Shown: piece by piece, positions 2,493-27,473 of the stretch | Numbering within the stretch: position 1 is the stretch's first letter | Layout of the letters: the number at the start of each line of letters is the position of its first letter | Source of the DNA: an uncultured virus (IMG/VR IMGVR_UViG_2740892351_000003) | Lineage: Duplodnaviria; Heunggongvirae; Uroviricota; Caudoviricetes | Virus record (IMG/VR): IMGVR_UViG_2740892351_000003 | Location: 62,001 to 126,000 of that record | Strand: one strand, 5' to 3' | Length of the DNA stretch: 64,000 nucleotides | Translations under genes and position numbers: made by a program | The notes under the pieces: model-generated | What the model was told of the DNA's origin: nothing | What the model saw: only the letters and a program-made list of their open reading frames with translations | Databases searched by the model: none

Positions 2493-3461
2493 TTAATTAA
2501 CATCTCCCACTTTTAATAATTTATATATTGGATTATTTTCAGTCATTTTTTTTGTATTACTCTCTTTGTCTTGATGCATATAATATTTATACATTGTCTG
2601 TATACTTTTATTACCTGTAAACTTTCCTATTTCTTCCAATTTTGTTCCTGTTTCAGACATTAATGAAACAAAACTATGTTTAAAACTATGCGGTGTTACA
2701 TGAGGCAATCCAGCTAACTTCAATGCTTTTTTTACAAGTCTTTCTATTGACCTTGTTGTTAATCTTTCATTATTTTTAGATAAGAACAAAGCATTTGTGC
2801 TATCTTTATTATCTTTTTTACCTTCGATTTGGTTTCTAAAGTATAAAAAATCTCTATACATTTTTAATACTTGTTCATTTAAACCTACATTTCTTTTTAA
2901 TTTTCTTTTCCCTATCACTTCAAAATCTCCATTCGAGAAATTTATGTCTTTTATATTCATTTTTTCTATTTCATGTATTCTCATACCAGTAAAAATAAGT
3001 ATGTTTATAATCAAATTATCTCTGCAAGTATTATAGTTTTTATTATCAACATATAATTTATTCATAGTTTCTAATAATTTAATAATTTCATCTTTAGTTA
3101 ATATCTTTTTCTCAAATTGAACTTTATCTTGTAATTTTTTAACGTAGCTAACGGGATTATCTTTAATTTTACCTTTAGCTCTAAGAAAGCCACAATAAGC
3201 TTTAAATGATGCTCTTTTTCTGTTTATTGTAGCTGCTTTCATTCCTTTTTCTTTTAATAAGATAAGCCATTTTTCTTGTATATCTGTAAAAAGTATTTTA
3301 TCAAGTTCTTCCATTGTACAATTTTCTTTTTTAAATAAATACCTTATGCCTTCTTTTACATCAGCTCTATATGCTTTTATTGTTTTCTCATCTCTATCAT
3401 TATATAACTTTAAATTTAATAAAAATTCTTCTAGAGCTTCTATTCCAGTCATATGTATCAC
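2493..3461 (-). CDS. XerC/D-like tyrosine recombinase
   Basis: SAM domain (EKTIKAYRADV, ATINRKRAS), TGMRIHE, VIGKRK, VTPHSFKHSF, TMYKYY. Confidence 0.9.
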   Translation of the reverse strand: MIHMTGIEALEEFLLNLKLYNDRDEKTIKAYRADVKEGIRYLFKKENCTMEELDKILFTDIQEKWLILLKEKGMKAATINRKRASFKAYCGFLRAKGKIKDNPVSYVKKLQDKVQFEKKILTKDEIIKLLETMNKLYVDNKNYNTCRDNLIINILIFTGMRIHEIEKMNIKDINFSNGDFEVIGKRKLKRNVGLNEQVLKMYRDFLYFRNQIEGKKDNKDSTNALFLSKNNERLTTRSIERLVKKALKLAGLPHVTPHSFKHSFVSLMSETGTKLEEIGKFTGNKSIQTMYKYYMHQDKESNTKKMTENNPIYKLLKVGDVN

Positions 3462-3618
3462 ATCCTTTTTATTTTATATTTATATCATATACCTATTTTA
3501 TTTAGTTGTCAATATTTTTAAGTAATTTTATATTTTATTTAGTTTAATTAATCTTATCAAAATATAAAAATTTTTTTGATAAGATATTAAATTAAAAACT
3601 ACGATTTTATTGTCATTT

Positions 3619-4191
3619 TTATTGACCATACTTCTTTATGTATTCTAATAATGCCATGCTCATCAAATCAGATTTATTAAACTCTCTAAATTTTTCACAA
3701 AACTCATCAAATAAGTTCCATGCATCTTTATTCAACCTAACTGTAGTCCTTATAGCATCTTTTGAAGGTAAATCAATTTTAATACCATCCTGTACAATTT
3801 CTATTACATTTGTATCTTCTTTATTCTCAAACCAGTTTAATACATCTTGTATTTTATCATAGTCTTTTGCTAAAGAGATTATATTATTTTTAAATTGGTT
3901 GTCAATTACTATGTTGTGATTGTTGTCATCTTCTATTGTCATATTAAATCTATTATCATTATTACTCTGTTGTCTGTTGTTTACTACCTTTGTCATACTA
4001 TTGTCACCAATAAACACATACTCATCATTTATACGTTTATAACCTCTTTTAGTGAGATATTTTCTTATACTACTTTCAGATACACCAAGCTCTATAGCAA
4101 CTTTAGTCAAACTCTTACTATCATTTAACTTACTATTAATATATTCAACTATATATGTTATATCATTATTTTTTAAATCATTCCAAGTCAT
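3619..4191 (-). CDS. DNA-binding protein (N-terminal HTH, C-terminal ribbon-helix-helix-like)
   Basis: SLTKVAIELGVSESSIRKYL (HTH); RTTVRLNKDAWNLFDEF..KSDLMSMALLEYI (RHH pattern). Confidence 0.7.
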   Translation of the reverse strand: MTWNDLKNNDITYIVEYINSKLNDSKSLTKVAIELGVSESSIRKYLTKRGYKRINDEYVFIGDNSMTKVVNNRQQSNNDNRFNMTIEDDNNHNIVIDNQFKNNIISLAKDYDKIQDVLNWFENKEDTNVIEIVQDGIKIDLPSKDAIRTTVRLNKDAWNLFDEFCEKFREFNKSDLMSMALLEYIKKYGQ

Positions 4192-4376
4192 ATACTCACC
4201 TCTAATTTAAGTATACTACACGAGATTATGATTGTCATACTATGTTAATCTTTTAATTCTACGTTTAATCTACATATCTTTCTAAACTATATCATTTTTT
4301 TACAATATTACATCTATTAATAAGTAAACGATAAAGTCAATATGCTGTAATTTAGTATATTGACTTTATATACTTA

Positions 4377-6731
4377 CTACAAAATTAACCCTAAAGTGCT
4401 GTTATACTTTAACTTATTACTAGATTTTAGTACCATATATCCTTCTAATTTATTTATTAATTTCAAGTAACACAATCTATTAAATATAAATCCTGACACT
4501 TGAATTGAGTCACGTTGTAAATCTATATCTTCTCGATAAAAATCTTCCTCGAGAATAATTTTACAGTTTGTATCAGTAGCTTTAAAAAGCTTAGATGCTT
4601 CGCTCTCATTATCAACAATATGTTTATAAGGTTCAAAATTAAATATTAAATCCAAACCATCGAAATCAGCTTTATACATACCAAAAATATTCTTAATTTC
4701 ATTATCACAATTTATAAAACTATCTTCAAAATATTTTTTAACTACACTATTATCATAATATTCATTCAAAATATTTTTTCTAATACTCATCGTAAAAATA
4801 GATTCTGTCTTTAATATTTTATTTAAAATAGATTTAGTTGTATTCTTAAGTTTGTCGTCATAAATTTCATCTTTACTAGGCAGAATATAAAAATTCCCAT
4901 ATTCACATTTATCATTACTATTACATTTACTCATTCTTTGTATTAAACTATCCATAGTTGCTAAATCACTTATTACTATATTAAAATCTATGTCTAATGA
5001 TATTTCTTGAGTAGATATCCAAACATCACCCTTTTCATCAAATATTTTATTATATTTTTCTTCTTTATCTTTAAATTTAAACCTATCATGCAAAACATTT
5101 ATATCTGCATCATTATATTTATTTGATAAGTTTTCTTTTAAAAGCTTATATGTGCTATTAGCTGAATCAATAGTGTTTTTTATTATTAAAATTCTCTGTT
5201 TCTTTTCTAAAGCATTTTCAACTATTGATTTGATTTCTTTTTCTTTTATAAAAGAAACCTTTACATTTTTACCTTCACAAATATCTTCTTCCTTGTTGCT
5301 CTCAATAAAAACTATCTCCCCTTTATCAGTGATATTTTCATTACATTCTTCTTGAAAAATAATTCCCTTGCTTATCATTTGCTCTTTATATGATTTTGGA
5401 AGCATAGTTGCCATTAAGTGAAAATCAACATTTAAATACTTACATGCAAACTGTATAAAATATATTAAAATTAAAAACATCTTTGGATTCAATAAATGAA
5501 CTTCATCAACAGTTATAGATGCATTTTTTACAGCTGCAAATATCTTTTCATACCCTGGAAACTTAAACATACTTAATAATAATTGGTCAATGGTTGCAAT
5601 TAAATATGGTTTACAAAGATTCAAACTCAAATCTATATCTCTTAAAGTTACTTCACAATCTTGTTCATTATAATTTTCACTATATGAATATAAATTTATA
5701 TCTCCATTAAGTAATCCAAGATAATCATTTTTAAATATATTTTTTATGTAAAAACTTTCGGATGAAAATTGATTTGGAACTAAAAATAATTTTCTTTTAA
5801 AATTCTTTCTACAATCAGCAACTTTTTTTCCTGACCCAGTAAATGCAACAGTCAGAACATTTTTTTCAGAAAATTTTCTCATCTTTTTTTGTATAGTATT
5901 GAACTCTATATTATTTTTTTCTAAATTATCATGATTATTATATATATCATTTAAAATCATTTCATCAATTTCTTTATCAGTAAAATCATTATAAAATTTT
6001 ATATCTTTATTTGTGCCTTGTGCAACATGGTCTATTAAATTCAGCATACCTTTATACAAAATATATTTAGCTCTTCTTTGATTTAAAATTGAGTCATCTA
6101 TTTGACCATTATCATAATCACTCTCTATAACCATTTTTTCACTTAATTTATCTAAATAATCATAATCCAGTACATCCTCATTAAATTTAAAATCTATATT
6201 TAAAATTTCACTTATACAATCTTCTATATCTTTCAGATTAAATGATTCTTTGTTTTCTAAAATTCCATCATCAATATACTTATAAATTTCTTCTTGTACT
6301 TTACTAGTAGTTAATTTCATATAATCTATATAATTTCCATGATGTAGCATTATGCTTTTATATATATAAAATTCATCTTCTTCTGACAAGTTCATTTTTT
6401 CTAATATTGATTTCAAAAATGCTCCAGAAAACACATTATGTTTCGCTATCTTTTCTAAAGATTTTTTTTCAAATTCTAATTTTTTGATTTCTTCTTTTAA
6501 AGAACTAGATGATATTTTATTGTTAATTTCTATTTTTTGCTGTGTGATTAAATTAATCTTTCCTAAATCGTGCAAAACACAACATATCTTTAGTATTTCT
6601 ATATCTTTACCTGAATACAAATCTATATCTAATATAGATTCTAATACTTTAAATAAATCTTTAATATGTCCGACTAGTGTTTGTTCCTTTTTATTTAAAT
6701 TACATGAACCAGCCAATAATTCTTTTTTCAT
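4377..6731 (-). CDS. cas3: Solo Cas3-like protein (HD nuclease plus degenerate SF2 helicase)
   Basis: HD domain: LVGHIKD, LHDLGK, HNVFS, LHHG, LIDH. Helicase: AFTGSGKK, TIDQLL, DEVH, MAT, LHDRF, EISLDID, QRMSKCNS. Probable start at ATG 6731. Confidence 0.9.
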   Translation of the reverse strand: MKKELLAGSCNLNKKEQTLVGHIKDLFKVLESILDIDLYSGKDIEILKICCVLHDLGKINLITQQKIEINNKISSSSLKEEIKKLEFEKKSLEKIAKHNVFSGAFLKSILEKMNLSEEDEFYIYKSIMLHHGNYIDYMKLTTSKVQEEIYKYIDDGILENKESFNLKDIEDCISEILNIDFKFNEDVLDYDYLDKLSEKMVIESDYDNGQIDDSILNQRRAKYILYKGMLNLIDHVAQGTNKDIKFYNDFTDKEIDEMILNDIYNNHDNLEKNNIEFNTIQKKMRKFSEKNVLTVAFTGSGKKVADCRKNFKRKLFLVPNQFSSESFYIKNIFKNDYLGLLNGDINLYSYSENYNEQDCEVTLRDIDLSLNLCKPYLIATIDQLLLSMFKFPGYEKIFAAVKNASITVDEVHLLNPKMFLILIYFIQFACKYLNVDFHLMATMLPKSYKEQMISKGIIFQEECNENITDKGEIVFIESNKEEDICEGKNVKVSFIKEKEIKSIVENALEKKQRILIIKNTIDSANSTYKLLKENLSNKYNDADINVLHDRFKFKDKEEKYNKIFDEKGDVWISTQEISLDIDFNIVISDLATMDSLIQRMSKCNSNDKCEYGNFYILPSKDEIYDDKLKNTTKSILNKILKTESIFTMSIRKNILNEYYDNSVVKKYFEDSFINCDNEIKNIFGMYKADFDGLDLIFNFEPYKHIVDNESEASKLFKATDTNCKIILEEDFYREDIDLQRDSIQVSGFIFNRLCYLKLINKLEGYMVLKSSNKLKYNSTLGLIL

Positions 6732-6907
6732 ATTAACCCCCAAAATACTTTAAAGTAATAATAACTATCTATGTTTATTACTTTTTATATATTAACTATC
6801 TTCATAAACTCCTTCTGTTTAAAAGTCTGCATTATTTAAATGCAGACCTGATAAAAGCATATTTTATTGTTGTTTATACTAATTAAAATATATAATTTAT
6901 ACTTTGA

Positions 6908-7429
6908 TTACTGCTTTCTTTCAAACTTAGAATATGCTCCTGATAATTTTTTTATTTCTCTTGAGTTGTATTTTCTTTGTATTTCTTTAACCCTTCTCAT
7001 ATGTTCATCCATATTAAAATCATATTCTAGTTGTTCCATAGCACATTTTTTTAAATATTTAGATGTGTTTGTATTAAGTCCAACACGTCTGAAACCTTTT
7101 ACAATATTGTTGTTAGCTTCTACTAACATTAAATCCATTGCATATCCTTCATTTTCTTCAAGTTCTTGAAATTCTTTACATTTAGATAAATGAATTGTAA
7201 ATGGTATATCTGCATCTCCTATACCCATTGTATTTGTAAATACGAAGAAAATAATTTTGTCTAAAAAAGATACATCTATTCTTAAATTACCTTTTCGAAA
7301 TTCAATTATTTCTTTGTCTGATAAATTATCTAATTTAAATATAGCTGTAAATCCAGTTTCACTAAAATTAATACTCAAGCCAACTGGTATTTCTGCTTCT
7401 AATTTCTTTCCTACTTCTATTTTAAACAT
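6908..7429 (-). CDS. hypothetical protein
   Basis: 173-aa ORF with GGAGG RBS, in the leftward operon. Confidence 0.8.
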   Translation of the reverse strand: MFKIEVGKKLEAEIPVGLSINFSETGFTAIFKLDNLSDKEIIEFRKGNLRIDVSFLDKIIFFVFTNTMGIGDADIPFTIHLSKCKEFQELEENEGYAMDLMLVEANNNIVKGFRRVGLNTNTSKYLKKCAMEQLEYDFNMDEHMRRVKEIQRKYNSREIKKLSGAYSKFERKQ

Positions 7430-7558: not shown

Positions 7559-8107
7559 TCAATTATTATTAAGCAAATTATTATTAAGCAAATTATTAAA
7601 AAGAATAATATCATGATAATAATAATTTTCTATACTTCTTTCAACTATTACTTGCAATTCTTGTTTACGATTTTCAATATTCTTTTTTATTTCTTCTGAA
7701 AAATCTGACAAACTATCTTCTAGATTTCTTTCAATTAATTCGTCAAAGCTGTCTTTGTTGAATTTTTTATAACTTTCCCAATCCAAATCTTCATTTTTAA
7801 TTTTACACCATTTTTCAAATTCTTCATAATCATTTAAGTAACAAGGTTCTCCTAGTAATTCATTAACACTTATTTTTTCTTTGTTTAATTCACAAATAAA
7901 AATTTCTCTTTCATAAATATCTTCTACATATTTAAGCGAGTTATGAACTGATATAGCTTCAACTTTACCTTCTAAATTTATATATATTCTTATAGTATTA
8001 TCTTCTGCTAAAAAACTTTCCTTATAAACTTTTATAGCTTCTTCTTCTATTTTATCTATATTCTTATCTATTATTTTTAAAAATCTTTTTATTTTTTTAT
8101 AATTCAT
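7559..8107 (-). CDS. hypothetical acidic protein
   Basis: 182-aa ORF with AGGAGG RBS. Confidence 0.8.
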   Translation of the reverse strand: MNYKKIKRFLKIIDKNIDKIEEEAIKVYKESFLAEDNTIRIYINLEGKVEAISVHNSLKYVEDIYEREIFICELNKEKISVNELLGEPCYLNDYEEFEKWCKIKNEDLDWESYKKFNKDSFDELIERNLEDSLSDFSEEIKKNIENRKQELQVIVERSIENYYYHDIILFNNLLNNNLLNNN

Positions 8108-14205: not shown

Positions 14206-14919
14206 TTAAGAAACTATAGCTAAATAATTTGATGCTATACAAATATTCTCATAACGTAAGTCAGTTCCATATAGCTCATAATTAAAGTATCTTTCAAGTG
14301 TTTCTTGACTTAACTCTTCAATATCTCCTAATCGTTCAATATAATTCTCTGCAAATTCAATATCTGTCATATTTTCATAATATTCTATATCTTCTTCGTA
14401 TAAATTTTCAATAATCATGTCTTTATCAAAACGTAAATCTCTTGAAAATGCTTCTATGTCAAAGTAGTAAGCAATATTTTCTATATAAGATAAATCACCA
14501 CAATATATTTCTTCTATGTAACTACGTCCTAAATTTTCATCATCCAATTGTGACCTGTCGTCAAGTTGTATAAAAGTATAATTATCTGACAAGCTACAAA
14601 TATCACTTTCAATCATGTCGTAAAAATCAATGTATCCACGTTCAAGTAAAGCTTTTAACTCTTCAATCTCATATTCTTCTAACCTCTCAAGTTTCATTGC
14701 TAATTCATTCAGTTGCTCTATATTGCTATGTTCACTTATTTCTAACCCTTCTATATCTGTTTCAAAATCTGTTATGAAATACTCCTCATATTCTTCATTT
14801 ATCCCTATTCTATCTAATATTTCTTCTAATTCTTCCTCGTTTACTGGAAGTTCAGCCCATTCCCCTATTAGTTCACCTTCGTTATATTTCCCTAAATTAG
14901 TTATGTATATATTTAGCAT
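14206..14919 (-). CDS. ardA: ArdA antirestriction protein (DNA mimic)
   Basis: MLNIYITNLGKYNEGELIGEW..LP, EEYFITDFET, YFDIEAFSRDL, YFNYELYGTDL; extremely acidic. Confidence 0.92.
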   Translation of the reverse strand: MLNIYITNLGKYNEGELIGEWAELPVNEEELEEILDRIGINEEYEEYFITDFETDIEGLEISEHSNIEQLNELAMKLERLEEYEIEELKALLERGYIDFYDMIESDICSLSDNYTFIQLDDRSQLDDENLGRSYIEEIYCGDLSYIENIAYYFDIEAFSRDLRFDKDMIIENLYEEDIEYYENMTDIEFAENYIERLGDIEELSQETLERYFNYELYGTDLRYENICIASNYLAIVS

Positions 14920-16635: not shown

Positions 16636-16953
16636 ATGATTAGTGATAGATTAAGAGAACTAAGAAAAGAAAAAGGCTACACAATTAAAGAGTTAGCACA
16701 AATTATAAATGTTTCAGATATTTCAATCAGTAGATATGAAAACAACAAAAGGGATGCAGATATAAAAACATTGAAAGAGTTAGCAAAATTATATGATGTA
16801 TCATTAGACTATATAACTTGTCTTACAGATAATAGAGAAAATATACAACTTGAAGAAGAAGAAGTCAAACTATTAGATAATTATAGAGAGTTAGACACTA
16901 AAAGTAAAACAATAGTACAAGAACAAATAAATACATTAAAAAAACTACTGTAA
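16636..16953 (+). CDS. XRE-family (CI/ImmR-like) repressor
   Basis: RLRELRKEKGYTIKELAQIINVSDISISRYENNKR..YDVSLDYI; divergent from the early operon. Confidence 0.9.
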   Translation: MISDRLRELRKEKGYTIKELAQIINVSDISISRYENNKRDADIKTLKELAKLYDVSLDYITCLTDNRENIQLEEEEVKLLDNYRELDTKSKTIVQEQINTLKKLL

Positions 16954-17105
16954 GCTAGACATATATATCTAGCTTATTTTTTATATTCGATTTTAAAAAC
17001 TAAAGGTACAAACATAAGGCAATCACATTACAATACGCTTAGAATAGATTTAAATAGCTTGTATAATATATTATATTGTGTAGAATGTATTATAATATAA
17101 CCATA

Positions 17106-17176
17106 TCAAAAAAATCCGATGACCTGCATACTTATATAGATATATATATCAATATGCGAGTCATCGGAAAAATTAA
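17106..17176. repeat. Imperfect palindrome, copy A
   Basis: TCCGATGACCTGCATA, AT-rich core, TATGCGAGTCATCGGA. Partner copy at 24694-24764. Confidence 0.85.
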
Positions 17177-17219
17177 AAATATAAAAGTACTTAACAAAAT
17201 GTCAAGTACTTTTTATGTA

Positions 17220-17567
17220 TTATTGTAATTTTATTTTTATTTCTTCTAATTGTTCCATATTTCTAGCGACTTGGTCGGTTGCTCCATTTAGCTTTCTATT
17301 AATCTTAATTACTCTAGTTTCTATTGCATTTAACTTAATGTCAACCACATCAAAGTTATCTTTAATAGAAGTCATTTCCTCTGCTGTTGAAATAGATTGA
17401 TTATATAGTATATCTTGTTTCTTTTCAATACTGTCAAGCCTATTTTCTATACTATCAAATCTAGTATTCATATCTGTTTTTACTTCTTTTAATTCATTTT
17501 CAATTCCATTAAGTTTACTATCCATTTTCTGTAATAACTCTAGTATCTTTTCATCCATCACGACCAC
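17220..17567 (-). CDS. coiled-coil protein, MDEK family paralog 3
   Basis: MDEKILELLQKMD..TRFDSIENRLDS..QVARNME shared with 15592-15903. Confidence 0.8.
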   Translation of the reverse strand: MVVMDEKILELLQKMDSKLNGIENELKEVKTDMNTRFDSIENRLDSIEKKQDILYNQSISTAEEMTSIKDNFDVVDIKLNAIETRVIKINRKLNGATDQVARNMEQLEEIKIKLQ

Positions 17568-19259: not shown

Positions 19260-20204
19260 ATGAAAAAAGAAAAAGTAAAAGTTGCAGTAGACTTAGGTAA
19301 TAGTATGCTTAATTCAGCAGCATATATTGAAAAAGAATTAATTTTAAAAAAGTTACCAAATAAACTTCAATTTGAAAAAACAATATCACCAAAAGCACGT
19401 GTTATGAAAAAAGATGGTAAGGTAATCTACCTAGGTGTAGGAGATTTAAATAATAATGTTCTTAAACATACTAGAAAAAATTTATTAGAACAAGTTTTAG
19501 TCATGATTCATGAAATATTTCCTGATGAGGATAATCTTTCTGTGGAATTGATAACCGGATTACCACCAACTCAAATGTTTAATGAAAAATATTTGAAATT
19601 ATTTCAAGATATTTTTATTCAACCTGGAGAAATAAAAATTACTATTGATGGGAAACAAAAGACTTTTGAAATACTTAATGTTGATGTTAAAGCAGAAGGA
19701 TACTCAGGATTTATTTCACTTGTAGACAAGATTACTACTAAACAGAATATTCTAGGAATAGATGTTGGAGGCAGTACTACAGATTTATGTAATTATGAAT
19801 ATGATTATGAGGATGATATGTACTATCCTAATGTAACAGACACTATAGAAAAAGGAATCATAGACTTTGAAACAGCAATAGCAAATAAATTTAATAGTAA
19901 AAATGGTGCAGATATAAAAATAAGTCAAATAGATGTAATATTAAGAAACGATATTGATGTTATAGAGTATGAGGGTTCTAAATACAAATTAGATGATTAT
20001 ATTGATGCCATGTACCCTATTATTGATGATATGATTAATAAAATCACTAATAAATTTGGTCAGCTAGATGGATATTATGTCGTTGGTATTGGAGGGGGCT
20101 ATAAAACATTTAATAAATATGCTAATCAATTTATAAGTAAACAACTAGAAGTCGATGATGATTCTCGTTTCTATGCAAATGTAATTGGATACCTTGAACA
20201 ATAA
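19260..20204 (+). CDS. parM: ParM/StbA-family actin-like partition ATPase
   Basis: Actin-fold motifs VAVDLGNS, TGLP, AEG, GIDVGGSTTD, GIGGG. Confidence 0.88.
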   Translation: MKKEKVKVAVDLGNSMLNSAAYIEKELILKKLPNKLQFEKTISPKARVMKKDGKVIYLGVGDLNNNVLKHTRKNLLEQVLVMIHEIFPDEDNLSVELITGLPPTQMFNEKYLKLFQDIFIQPGEIKITIDGKQKTFEILNVDVKAEGYSGFISLVDKITTKQNILGIDVGGSTTDLCNYEYDYEDDMYYPNVTDTIEKGIIDFETAIANKFNSKNGADIKISQIDVILRNDIDVIEYEGSKYKLDDYIDAMYPIIDDMINKITNKFGQLDGYYVVGIGGGYKTFNKYANQFISKQLEVDDDSRFYANVIGYLEQ

Positions 20205-21206: not shown

Positions 21207-21343
21207 AGTCTAATTTTTACACCCTCCTATTTTTTTATTTTAAACTTATTATAATTTATAATTCCCATTTTTTCAAGGTAATTTTTCCCTTTACATAAAC
21301 AAATAAATACAAAAACAAATATATTAAAAACTGTTTATATTAA

Positions 21344-21486
21344 TATACCATCTCATGGTACGCCCATAGCATGGGATATCGAAAAATTCGATGTACCACG
21401 AGATGGTATATCGAAAGAATCGCTATATTTCAACGTTTTTTCGATTTTTGCCTCGATATACCACGAGATGGTACATCGAAAAATTA
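21344..21486. repeat. Iteron-like palindromes, candidate replication origin
   Basis: TCGATGTACCACGAGATGGTATATCGA (21388-21414), TCGATATACCACGAGATGGTACATCGA (21453-21479) and partial TATACCATCTCATGGTAC (21344-21361), upstream of the rep genes and next to AT-rich DNA. Confidence 0.7.
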
Positions 21487-21772
21487 AAGTATCTGAAACA
21501 ATTTAAAAATTATATAGTTATGCACAGATAAAAATACAAATTGTTAATAAAATTGCAACTTATCAACATGTTATCAACAACTTACTAACAGCTTATCAAC
21601 AGGGAATAAAACTGAATAAAATACTAAATTGACAAAAATAATATAAAATGTTAATATATAATTATAGATAAAATTAAGATAAAATATTAAATTAATAGGA
21701 GGAAATTTATATATGAAAAACATTTAACAACTAAATAAAATTAAAAAACAAAATTGAAATGGAGGTTAAAAT

Positions 21773-26627: not shown

Positions 26628-26704
26628 AGGGATATAGCTCAGGTGGTTAGAGCATTCGGTTTATACCCGAAAGGTCATAGGTTCGACTCCTATTATTCCT
26701 ACCA
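26628..26704 (+). tRNA. tRNA-Ile (anticodon UAU)
   Basis: AGGGATA/TATTCCT acceptor stem, GCTC/GAGC D stem, TTCGG-TTTATAC-CCGAA anticodon arm, ATAGG-TTCGACT-CCTAT T arm, encoded CCA. Confidence 0.9.
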
Positions 26705-26709
26705 AATAT

Positions 26710-26800
26710 GGAGAGGTACTCAAGTGGTAAAGAGGATAGTTTGCTAAACTATTAGTTCAATTAATTTGATACGAGGGTTCAAATCCCTTCCTCTCTTCCA
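26710..26800 (+). tRNA. tRNA-Ser (anticodon GCU), long variable arm
   Basis: GGAGAGG/CCTCTCT acceptor stem, ATAGT-TTGCTAA-ACTAT anticodon arm, GAGGG-TTCAAAT-CCCTT T arm, CCA. Confidence 0.88.
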
Positions 26801-26855
26801 ATAAAAAAAGTTTGTTATTTTTAAATAATATTTTAATTAAAAGGGAGATGTTTTT

Positions 26856-27473
26856 ATGGTTAAATATAATGTTCATAAAGCTTTAGCAGAAAAGAAGTTA
26901 TTAGAAGATAAGATAGATAGATGCATTAGTAATTTCAAAATTGTAGGTACTAAAAAAGGGTCTGATAAAAATGTATATGAAACAAAAACAAGTGTAGAAG
27001 ATTTTAATGTAGAAGTTTCAAGTAAATACCAACAAATAGAAGATTTAATATATAATTATAACGCATTAGATAAAGCAATTAATATCTCTAATGCTGTAAC
27101 AAATGTTCAAATTGCTAATAAAAATTATACAGTTTTAGAAGCAATAAAAAGAAAAAATAGTATAGAATTAGATAAATCCTTGTTGAGACAAATGGTTAGT
27201 AACTATGATTGTATGATGTCTGAAGTAAATCGTAGAAATGAAGAAGTACAAAGAAATACAGATAAAATGTTTGAGGAAAAAGAAAAAAGTAAAGATGGAG
27301 CAGAATTTATTTCATTTTATAAAAAACAACAAGAATGGTCTTTAGTAGACCCTTTAAAAGTAAGAGAGAAAATAGAAAAGTTAAGGGATGAAATAGAAGA
27401 ATTTGAAAAAGAAGTTGATTTTGCATTGAGTACATCAAATGCACTTACAATTATAGATGTAGATTTAAAATAG
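26856..27473 (+). CDS. Coiled-coil protein, tentatively DIP1984/DUF6847-like
   Basis: VHKALAEKKLLEDKI, SNAVTNVQI..YTVLEAI, LVDPL..EVDFALSTSNALT. The family resemblance is from memory only. Confidence 0.55.
   Translation: MVKYNVHKALAEKKLLEDKIDRCISNFKIVGTKKGSDKNVYETKTSVEDFNVEVSSKYQQIEDLIYNYNALDKAINISNAVTNVQIANKNYTVLEAIKRKNSIELDKSLLRQMVSNYDCMMSEVNRRNEEVQRNTDKMFEEKEKSKDGAEFISFYKKQQEWSLVDPLKVREKIEKLRDEIEEFEKEVDFALSTSNALTIIDVDLK

Follow-up and report, generated by a model that had tools for sequence, protein, structure and literature searches.

A solo Cas3 homologue with a conserved HD nuclease site and altered helicase motifs in large Clostridioides difficile phages: a candidate Cas-derived anti-CRISPR

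The 64,000-nt stretch of DNA analysed here (the window; bases 62001-126000 of the 139,236-bp virus record IMGVR_UViG_2740892351_000003) comes from a phage of the phiCD211/phiCDIF1296T group, large phages of Clostridioides difficile, and carries a solo cas3 gene, here named cas3*. Its product keeps the HD nuclease site of host Cas3, has fixed changes in its helicase motifs and is under purifying selection. We consider it a probable counter-defence protein, derived from a defence gene that the phage captured. More specifically, we tentatively read it, at a little less than an even chance, as a Cas-derived anti-CRISPR (Acr) that takes the place of host Cas3 on Cascade and is unable to translocate. 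The observation itself is real and robust, and the interpretation appears plausible and better grounded than in the initial annotation of the window. The gene and its likely ribosome-binding sequence, the latter from direct reading of the sequence, are as follows:

4377..6731, minus strand: cas3*, 784 aa plus stop codon from an ATG, a solo phage-borne Cas3 with HD and superfamily 2 (SF2) helicase domains
6737..6741, minus strand: Shine-Dalgarno-like GGGGG, 5 nt before the cas3* ATG at 6731

Translation gives the length of about 784 aa that had been annotated for this open reading frame (ORF), and the frame extends open to a TTG at 6743 (788 aa). The protein matched the NCBIfam models cas3_core (TIGR01587; 131.6 bits, above the cut-off of 102.45) and cas3_HD (TIGR01596; 69.2 bits, above the cut-off of 43.45), as well as PF22590 (1.3e-17). 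On cas3_core, host Cas3 scored 173.6 bits versus 131.6 for cas3*, whose alignment stops short of the P-loop. A sequence search of solved structures gave Cas3 chains as the best matches. The AlphaFold2 model of cas3* (44 sequences) had a predicted local distance difference test (pLDDT) score of 87.7 and a predicted template modelling (pTM) score of 0.90, and its top 10 Foldseek matches in the PDB were all Cas3 (4q2d, 4qqw, 8zns and others), with E-values down to 3e-19 and TMq of 0.48-0.62; entry 5b7i, 'Cas3-AcrF3 complex', was among the results. As modelled, cas3* keeps the Cas3 fold, with an HD domain, two RecA-like domains and a C-terminal domain.

The occurrence of Cas3 on large C. difficile phages, to which the initial annotation had alluded, is mentioned in an excerpt of PMC5786514 together with possible superinfection immunity, and an excerpt of PMC10778935 reports, without analysis, that prophages of environmental isolates carry type I cas3 genes. 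No description of helicase-motif loss in these phage Cas3 proteins was found in the full-text literature covered, most subscription journals lying outside that coverage.

The relatives of cas3* point to the host as its source. A search of 5.8 billion protein clusters returned variants on phage-size contigs (89-100% identity), a second phage-type lineage, P0006 (79%), the abundant chromosomal C. difficile Cas3 P0007 (734 members; 73-75%) and other Clostridia Cas3 at 51% identity or less. Over the full length, identity between cas3* and chromosomal C. difficile Cas3 is 75-78%. The 77%-identical chromosomal homologue lies in the order cas6-cas8b-cas7-cas5-cas3, followed by prmA, rsmE and mtaB and without cas4/1/2, a layout matching the 'partial' type I-B operon described in excerpts of PMC10732046 (2023). 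According to these excerpts, the partial operon alone is required for interference in C. difficile and is inhibited by AcrIB2, and its Cas3 is far more abundant than that of the full operon, although its absolute level is low. In a maximum-likelihood tree built from 24 sequences, rooted at midpoint only, the 7 phage-type sequences were monophyletic (100/100) within a Clostridioides clade of 12 (100/100). A single capture of host cas3 followed by diversification on phages would be the simplest reading. A profile-based scan of IMG/VR for further viral relatives returned the same phage group only (4 loci of 66 candidate stretches). Two Listeria phage records without annotation, OR848150.1 and OR846720.1, contain a Cas3-like frame 26% identical to cas3* residues 15-606, HD region included.

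For the comparison of motifs, cas3* was aligned with 15 relatives and with 37 reference Cas3 proteins of the same subfamily; the references include the two host clusters, and P0009 (internal deletion) and P0035 (fragment) were excluded. Motifs were also surveyed in 28 phage-clade sequences (P0001 to P0006 plus 22 cluster members), 27 of which reach the helicase, P0135 being a 302-aa fragment without the helicase part. The domain and motifs compared in cas3* are:

6021..6677, minus strand: HD nuclease domain (residues 19-237), with LVGH, LHDLGK, KHN, LHHG and IDH all intact
5823..5837, minus strand: Walker A or motif I, GSGKK (residues 299-303), Thr replaced by Lys; GSGKT in host and all references
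5700..5714, minus strand: LLNGD (residues 340-344), H342N relative to LLHGD, a reference-invariant His replaced by Asn
5496..5507, minus strand: motif II, DEVH (residues 409-412), retained
5403..5414, minus strand: motif III region, MATM (residues 440-443), versus MTAT in host and references
5079..5093, minus strand: motif IV region, LHDRF (residues 547-551), S549D relative to LHSRF
4992..5015, minus strand: motif V, STQ--EISLD (residues 573-580), a 2-residue deletion relative to STQSVEISLD
4917..4940, minus strand: motif VI, QRMSKCNS (residues 598-605), both arginines of QRMGRCNR gone

The changes at Walker A and motifs III, V and VI had been pointed out in the initial annotation and all hold in both alignments. 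That list was correct yet incomplete, H342N and S549D being further changes and DEVH being intact; motif Ib of the phage clade is also altered, besides III and IV. None of the SF2 ATPase motifs I, III, V and VI is intact in cas3* (T303K; A442T/T443M; the motif V deletion; R602K and R605S). The arginines lost from motif VI were described in the initial annotation as needed for ATP hydrolysis. Within the phage clade, the motif V deletion as well as R602K and R605S/I/V in motif VI are present in all 27 sequences that reach the helicase, and motif II reads DEVH in 26 of them and DEIH in one. Walker A is found in four damaged states, GSGKK (17 sequences), RSGKK (1), NSVKT (4) and NSVKM (5), and the Asn of LLNGD is Asp in the P0006 lineage. 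In the 37 references, 112 columns are conserved at 95% or more, and 13 of these are altered in the phage core clade:

HD domain: K8G, S238Q
RecA1: T303K (Walker A), I322F, H342N, A442T, T443M
RecA2: S549D, one deleted motif V residue, R602K, R605S
C-terminal domain: N704H, R717K

As a control, the 35 references outside Clostridioides were taken alone; of their 93 invariant columns, 10 are altered in the phage clade and one in the host clade.

The nine ligand columns of the HD site (H22, H54, D55, H98, N99, H130, H131, D234 and H235), invariant or nearly so across the 37 references, are unchanged in all 7 phage-clade sequences checked, which bears out the intact HD ligands of the initial annotation, and LHDLGK, (K/R)HN, LHHG and IDH are kept in 28 of 28. 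Since the HD motifs are kept throughout and Walker A occurs in four damaged states, the P-loop is free to vary in the phage clade and the nuclease site is not. This strict conservation suggests that the nuclease, or its pocket for binding single-stranded DNA, probably matters in cas3*.

Ratios of non-synonymous to synonymous substitution rates (dN/dS) were estimated pairwise on codon alignments by the Nei-Gojobori method, which takes no account of recombination among alleles; L006 is identical to LIBA6276 and was counted once. The ranges were:

Four distinct phage alleles: all sites 0.18-0.25, helicase core 0.20-0.30, HD 0.12-0.27, C-terminal 0.07-0.31
Three host genes: all sites 0.13-0.16, helicase core 0.08-0.13, HD and C-terminal not available

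With dS among the phage alleles reaching 0.23, these values indicate that cas3* is under purifying selection and not decaying, and that constraint on the helicase core in the phage clade is relaxed about two-fold yet still strong. Frame lengths agree with this. Among the 15 members listed of the 80 in cluster 1, 12 are 781-788 aa long and lie on 345 contigs, and the other three (768, 609 and 302 aa) lie on one contig each; all nine members of the P0006 cluster are 796-799 aa long, seven of them on contigs of 115-152 kb. Altogether, 25 of the 28 phage-clade sequences examined have intact frames of 781-799 aa, and the lesions are common to lineages 20% apart in protein sequence. Random frameshifts and a dN/dS near 1, named in the initial annotation as signs that would speak against its proposal, were thus not found: the ratio is 0.18-0.25 and frames are nearly always intact. 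Between the window and LIBA6276 (L002), dS of cas3* is 0.27 for the HD domain against 0.025-0.045 for the remaining three; such a mosaic, about ten-fold between domains, points to recombination among cas3* alleles.

cas3* stands alone on its phage. No CRISPR array was found in the window by Tandem Repeats Finder and repeat scans, and none with at least 3 repeats in the 139-kb record by a k-mer chain scan and a fuzzy search with the phiCD211 repeat. Searches of the 139-kb record by tblastn with host Cas6, Cas8b, Cas7 and Cas5 gave chance-level matches (E 0.4-0.9). The absence of other cas genes and arrays, first noted for the window, therefore extends to the whole 139,236-bp record.

The genes around cas3* suggest a counter-defence setting. 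Along the direction of transcription the order is acrIB2-like, ORF173, cas3*, P0097, and an antirestriction gene lies further upstream:

7559..8107, minus strand: acrIB2-like gene (P0096, 182 aa), two genes upstream of cas3*
6908..7429, minus strand: ORF173 (P0095), between the acrIB2-like gene and cas3*; phrog_12389
3619..4191, minus strand: P0097 (190 aa), directly downstream of cas3*; phrog_2727
14206..14919, minus strand: ArdA antirestriction gene (PF07275, 127.6 bits), in the same-strand run as cas3*

The acrIB2-like gene was overlooked in the initial annotation; as a neighbour of cas3* it is both closer and more informative than ArdA. Its product corresponds to a fused form of phiCDHM13 gp28 (54% identity, 2e-29) and gp29 (57%, 8e-15; tblastn) and shares 55.9% identity, over residues 1-160, with the phiCD38-2 ORF located at 26681-27157. 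The D-Y-E-E acidic patch is conserved in P0096, D93 being invariant and E95/E96 nearly so. The AcrIB2 family is named in the excerpts of PMC10732046, where the phiCD38-2 protein was validated and the split phiCDHM13 form was inactive. By these features P0096 is a homologue of the AcrIB2 family with a putative Acr function. As to the statement in the initial annotation that cas3* sits at the end of an ArdA run, the ArdA gene is real and belongs to the same minus-strand run, which also holds about a dozen small genes without assigned function, but it lies ~7.5 kb upstream, so that the statement is only loosely true. With the acrIB2-like gene (7559-8107) and ArdA (14206-14919), cas3* is an orphan cas homologue on a virus beside acr and anti-defence genes.

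P0097 gave weak helix-turn-helix matches (HTH_6, E=0.012; HTH_7, E=0.16) and the Atlas leads RHH_3 (0.89) and HTH_11 (0.88), and a PDB sequence search with it returned nothing useful. Its position next to the locus is kept in LIBA6276, ES-S-0107-01 and phiCD211. P0097 is a putative DNA-binding protein and a candidate Aca-like regulator. ORF173 has homologues in 6 clusters, all from Clostridioides; it had no Pfam match and no named Atlas lead, and its AlphaFold2 model (6 sequences) was poor (pLDDT 45.6). The idea that it is an obligate partner of cas3* was dropped, because LIBA6276 has an unrelated 174-aa ORF at this position, which is a variable slot. Between ORF173 and cas3*, the window contains an inverted repeat at 6825-6847 (GTCTGCAT, 7 nt, ATGCAGAC) with four T after the repeat on the minus strand; the terminator scan made no call here, and the repeat may attenuate read-through into cas3*.

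Two further regions of the window are worth noting: 1) A minus-strand gene at 1-1233, running off the window start, has a product of at least 411 aa in which RRXRR (203 bits) and HNH domains are recognised (phrog_119); it is IscB-like or HNH endonuclease-like and adjoins two tyrosine-recombinase-like genes (1488-2381 and 2493-3461). 2) A divergent intergenic region at 21340-21601 contains two 29-nt internally palindromic repeats (21388-21416 and 21453-21481, 65 nt apart), followed by about four CAACTTATCAA iterons at 21556-21601, and an actin-like (ParM/Alp-type) gene lies nearby at 19260-20204. The repeat pair (21388-21481) was rejected as a CRISPR, its units being palindromes within a divergent region of regulatory or origin-like character. 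This region looks as if it served a plasmid-like prophage as an origin, in partition or as a switch.

The preferred reading of cas3* can be set out as a series of steps. A phage lineage like phiCD211 would have captured cas3 once from a Clostridioides partial type I-B operon and turned it into a counter-defence protein. Since the Cas3 fold is kept and identity to host Cas3 is 75%, docking on the Cascade-R-loop complex is plausible, and cas3* would probably still dock on target-bound Cascade. The HD metal site being kept, cas3* may retain the ability to bind or nick the displaced strand; the conservation of this site suggests that it may nick once or hold that strand, rather than be a purely steric plug. 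With its ATPase presumably disabled, cas3* would be unable to reel in and shred DNA, so that processive degradation should fail. Because host Cas3 is scarce, a phage-expressed copy could outcompete it, the occupied docking site keeping the host protein away, and what would have been lethal interference against phage or prophage would amount to no more than a nick that can be repaired. With an AcrIB2-type gene upstream of cas3* and a putative DNA-binding regulator following it, the locus would resemble other acr-aca loci.

A more detailed version, which we hold with appreciable doubt, is that a full-length, nuclease-competent and motor-dead Cas3 docks on type I-B Cascade, nicks at most once and stays, shutting out scarce host Cas3 and protecting infecting phage and lysogen from self-targeting. 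It would then be the first Acr derived from a Cas3 effector and acting at recruitment, a natural 'nickase Cas3' alongside AcrIB2 in one regulated locus. The decoy or dominant-negative competitor envisaged in the initial annotation has gained strength from the descent of cas3*, its single branch, the fixed lesions, purifying selection and the AcrIB2 locus; its mechanism is still something that we infer.

Compared with known proteins, cas3* is nearest to host Cas3 of the partial operon (P0007, P0008 and L012), with which it shares the HD, RecA1, RecA2 and C-terminal architecture and the HD ligands. However, the host proteins have canonical GSGKT, LLHGD, MTAT, LHSRF, TQSVE and QRMGRCNR and are encoded behind cas6-cas8b-cas7-cas5, whereas in cas3* every one of these helicase motifs is altered, DEVH alone being kept, and the gene is solo. 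Cas3-binding Acrs such as AcrIF3 and AcrIE1, as well as helicase-dead Cas3 mutants, mark the Cas3 step as a target of inhibition, and ATPase-dead Cas3 is generally regarded as able to bind and nick, though unable to degrade. Unlike laboratory helicase-dead mutants or small unrelated Acrs, cas3* is a natural, phage-maintained, full-length variant.

Viral Cas homologues with anti-CRISPR activity provide a precedent for a Cas-derived anti-CRISPR: according to excerpts of a preprint (bioRxiv 10.1101/2023.06.24.545427) they include AcrIB3 (Cas5-like), AcrIB4 (Cas8b-like) and AcrVIA2/AcrVIA2.1 (Cas3-like). As in the Cas-derived viral anti-CRISPRs described there, cas3* is an orphan viral cas homologue, has acr neighbours and belongs to a clade apart from bona fide Cas (100/100). 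Table S3 of the preprint holds 358 orphan viral cas genes from IMG/VR, which may include cas3*; 'Clostridi' is absent from the main text. AcrVIA2 and AcrVIA2.1 of Listeria phages are, like cas3*, orphan viral Cas3 homologues in anti-defence loci and in a clade apart from true Cas3. Going by the preprint's description, they are ~24% identical to Cas3, have no HD domain and act on type VI-A CRISPR RNA, AcrVIA2 needing its DEAD box, whereas cas3* is 75% identical to host Cas3, keeps HD and has broken ATPase motifs. AcrIB3 and AcrIB4, as described in the same excerpts, are type I-B Cas homologues on mobile elements which, as proposed for cas3*, replace a subunit to poison interference; they replace Cascade subunits before DNA binding, whereas cas3* would act at Cas3 recruitment. 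AcrIB2 of phiCD38-2 is directed at the same host system as cas3*, is proposed to act on Cas3 and has its homologue two genes upstream of cas3*; it is, in the part of PMC10732046 cited, an acidic protein of ~159 aa, unrelated to Cas3 and a proposed DNA mimic.

Several observations weigh against cas3* being an anti-CRISPR that replaces host Cas3. i) Enrichment of lesions in helicase motif windows, which we drew from SF2 motif definitions, was modest (9/50 columns versus 4/62 outside; Fisher p=0.077), and no statistical selectivity is therefore claimed from the column count. Both the HD and the C-terminal domain also have changes at conserved positions that are not ligands (K8G, S238Q, N704H and R717K). 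The column count bears out the 'selective' helicase loss of the initial annotation only in part; the survey of 28 phage-clade sequences is more informative. ii) The loss of ATPase activity we infer from motifs, with their roles taken as generally known for SF2 helicases and Cas3. iii) An intact HD metal site is not something that a purely steric decoy would obviously need, yet the site is strictly kept, and this retention would fit the non-processive nickase, the second option of the initial annotation, at least as well. iv) The phage already encodes an AcrIB2 homologue, which might also bind cas3*; in the excerpts of PMC10732046, AcrIB2 pull-down enriches Cas3 of both operons. v) The RNA data, which speak for this reading, come as contigs from a single study. 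Such contigs from 4 RNA-seq libraries match cas3* at 4728-5313, 5502-5914, 5899-6456 and 3599-4752, the last also covering P0097 and the three pieces inside cas3* having no differing letters, and contigs from these libraries also lie over ORF173 and the acrIB2-like gene. They attest presence in RNA libraries of one study; DNA carry-over is possible and transcription is unproven. The bins 1-2668, 16676-17342 and 19344-20000 had no contig cover in the 4 runs, which is neither a sign of silence nor an argument against DNA carry-over, and contig depth is unusable for ranking genes.

The variation of the locus in other phages also weighs against this reading. Of the nine phage records matched by the DNA query, five (phiCD211, filed twice, phiCDIF1296T, LIBA2945 and AR1086-1) hold only the last ~39 codons of cas3*. 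In phiCD211 the stub has two transposase ORFs on one side and, on the other, a 99-aa gene and a short degenerate CRISPR array, followed by an acrIB2-like gene; the Cas3 fragment, an array of 4 spacers and the acrIB2-like gene of this phage were already noted in the excerpts of PMC10732046. Since stubs, transposases and a mini-array occur at the same locus, it is a hot spot for the exchange of CRISPR-related cargo and cas3* is dispensable for the phage. The acrIB2-like gene and cas3* are neighbours in the window, LIBA6276 and ES-S-0107-01. The 99-aa gene of phiCD211 (L001; 10426-10725, between the stub and the mini-array) is 74-100% identical in 29 C. difficile phage records, corresponds to phiCDHM13 gp30 and is shared with many medium-sized C. 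difficile phages; it is absent at the cas3* locus of the window. It may be the conserved gene noted downstream of acrIB2 homologues in the excerpts of PMC10732046.

In C. difficile strain CD160 an intact cas3* (781 aa) was found in another setting, with ORF173 ~3.3 kb upstream and a 178-aa ORF and a PD-(D/E)XK transposase between the two. With the queries used, neither the partial-operon Cas8b nor the 77%-type host cas3 was found in CD160, and the Cas7 match was just 33-36%; cas3* can therefore persist without its presumed target, a further point against the proposal. The acrIB2-like gene was not found in the 22-kb CD160 locus that holds cas3*. Another C-terminal stub of cas3, which contains one TAG and shares 61% identity with residues 733-778, lies 2.5 kb downstream of the intact gene (G002:C36:46451-46588, L022); its presence suggests that cas3 has been gained and lost more than once at such loci. 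On the CD160 contig AVHW01000037.1 (L011; 22-5534 and 16055-18788), a TcdA/TcdB-family toxin gene, truncated by the edge of the locus, lies ~5.8 kb upstream of cas3*; after the toxin gene come a phage-type holin and an amidase, and an agr-like set (LytTR response regulator, GHKL kinase and AgrB) is found further on. This region looks like a mobile, phage-derived toxin-locus neighbourhood.

Four alternatives were weighed. The one that survives best, though we consider it unlikely, is that cas3* is a guided nickase or nuclease with its own role, whether it is recruited by host Cascade or acts alone, and that it introduces single nicks or short cuts but does not translocate. In this way rival phages or plasmids may be damaged, recombination or spacer priming initiated, or phage DNA processed, and the block of host Cas3 would be a side effect. 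The HD motifs, identical in 28 of 28 sequences while the P-loop is in four states, and the HD dN/dS of 0.12-0.27 are in keeping with this, as are the CRISPR arrays at the same locus in related phages (also in the excerpts of PMC10732046) and the suggestion, in the excerpt of PMC5786514, that phage Cas3 may give superinfection immunity. However, there is no array in the window phage, a single nick is a weak weapon, and a position beside an anti-CRISPR gene better fits inhibition than use of the host system.

It is improbable, to a degree somewhat greater, that cas3* is an inert look-alike serving as a partner of, or sponge for, Cas3-binding Acrs, either working with the phage's own AcrIB2 homologue or soaking up the Acrs of rival phages so that host immunity keeps shielding the lysogen. 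The pull-down of Cas3 of both operons with AcrIB2 and the place of cas3* beside an acrIB2-like gene in the window, LIBA6276 and ES-S-0107-01 would suit this role, and the excerpts of PMC10732046 consider the prophage arrays of this phage group to serve inter-phage conflict. Yet a phage encoding both an Acr and a sponge would cancel its own Acr, and no acrIB2-like gene was found in the 22-kb cas3* locus of CD160.

That cas3* is a functionless relic, a captured cas3 that is inactive, carried along and not yet broken, seems quite improbable. Its loss or truncation in the phiCD211 subgroup, the second, stopped stub 2.5 kb downstream in CD160 and the alteration of conserved positions in all domains are what a relic would be expected to leave, but the overall dN/dS of 0.18-0.25 across alleles with dS up to 0.23, the intact 781-799 aa frames in 25 of 28 clade sequences and lesions common to lineages differing by 20% in protein sequence argue against decay. 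Finally, a still-active Cas3 with unusual motifs, which would supply or boost host interference and give superinfection immunity as first proposed for these phages, is very unlikely. The retention of K302 and DEVH and the passing of both NCBIfam Cas3 models speak for it, but both motif VI arginines are lost, motif V has a deletion, one lineage has other residues in place of the Walker A glycines, the cas3_core score falls from 173.6 bits in the host to 131.6 with an alignment short of the P-loop, and the window phage has no array.

If cas3* does act as a Cas-derived anti-CRISPR in place of host Cas3, it would show an anti-CRISPR arising from a recently captured defence gene, with the intermediate steps preserved: the gene was captured, its motor motifs were lost, the P-loop went on decaying and the nuclease site was retained. 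The type I-B system of C. difficile, which, judging from paper titles, is in use for phage-delivered CRISPR antimicrobials and genome editing, would then have a second inhibitor, one with a different mechanism. A natural helicase-dead Cas3 would moreover offer a starting point for nick-only type I tools. Since cas3* is common in sequenced isolates, the listed full-length members being on 345 contigs, it could, if this reading is true, affect the performance of the antimicrobial and editing tools, and of native immunity, in lysogens.

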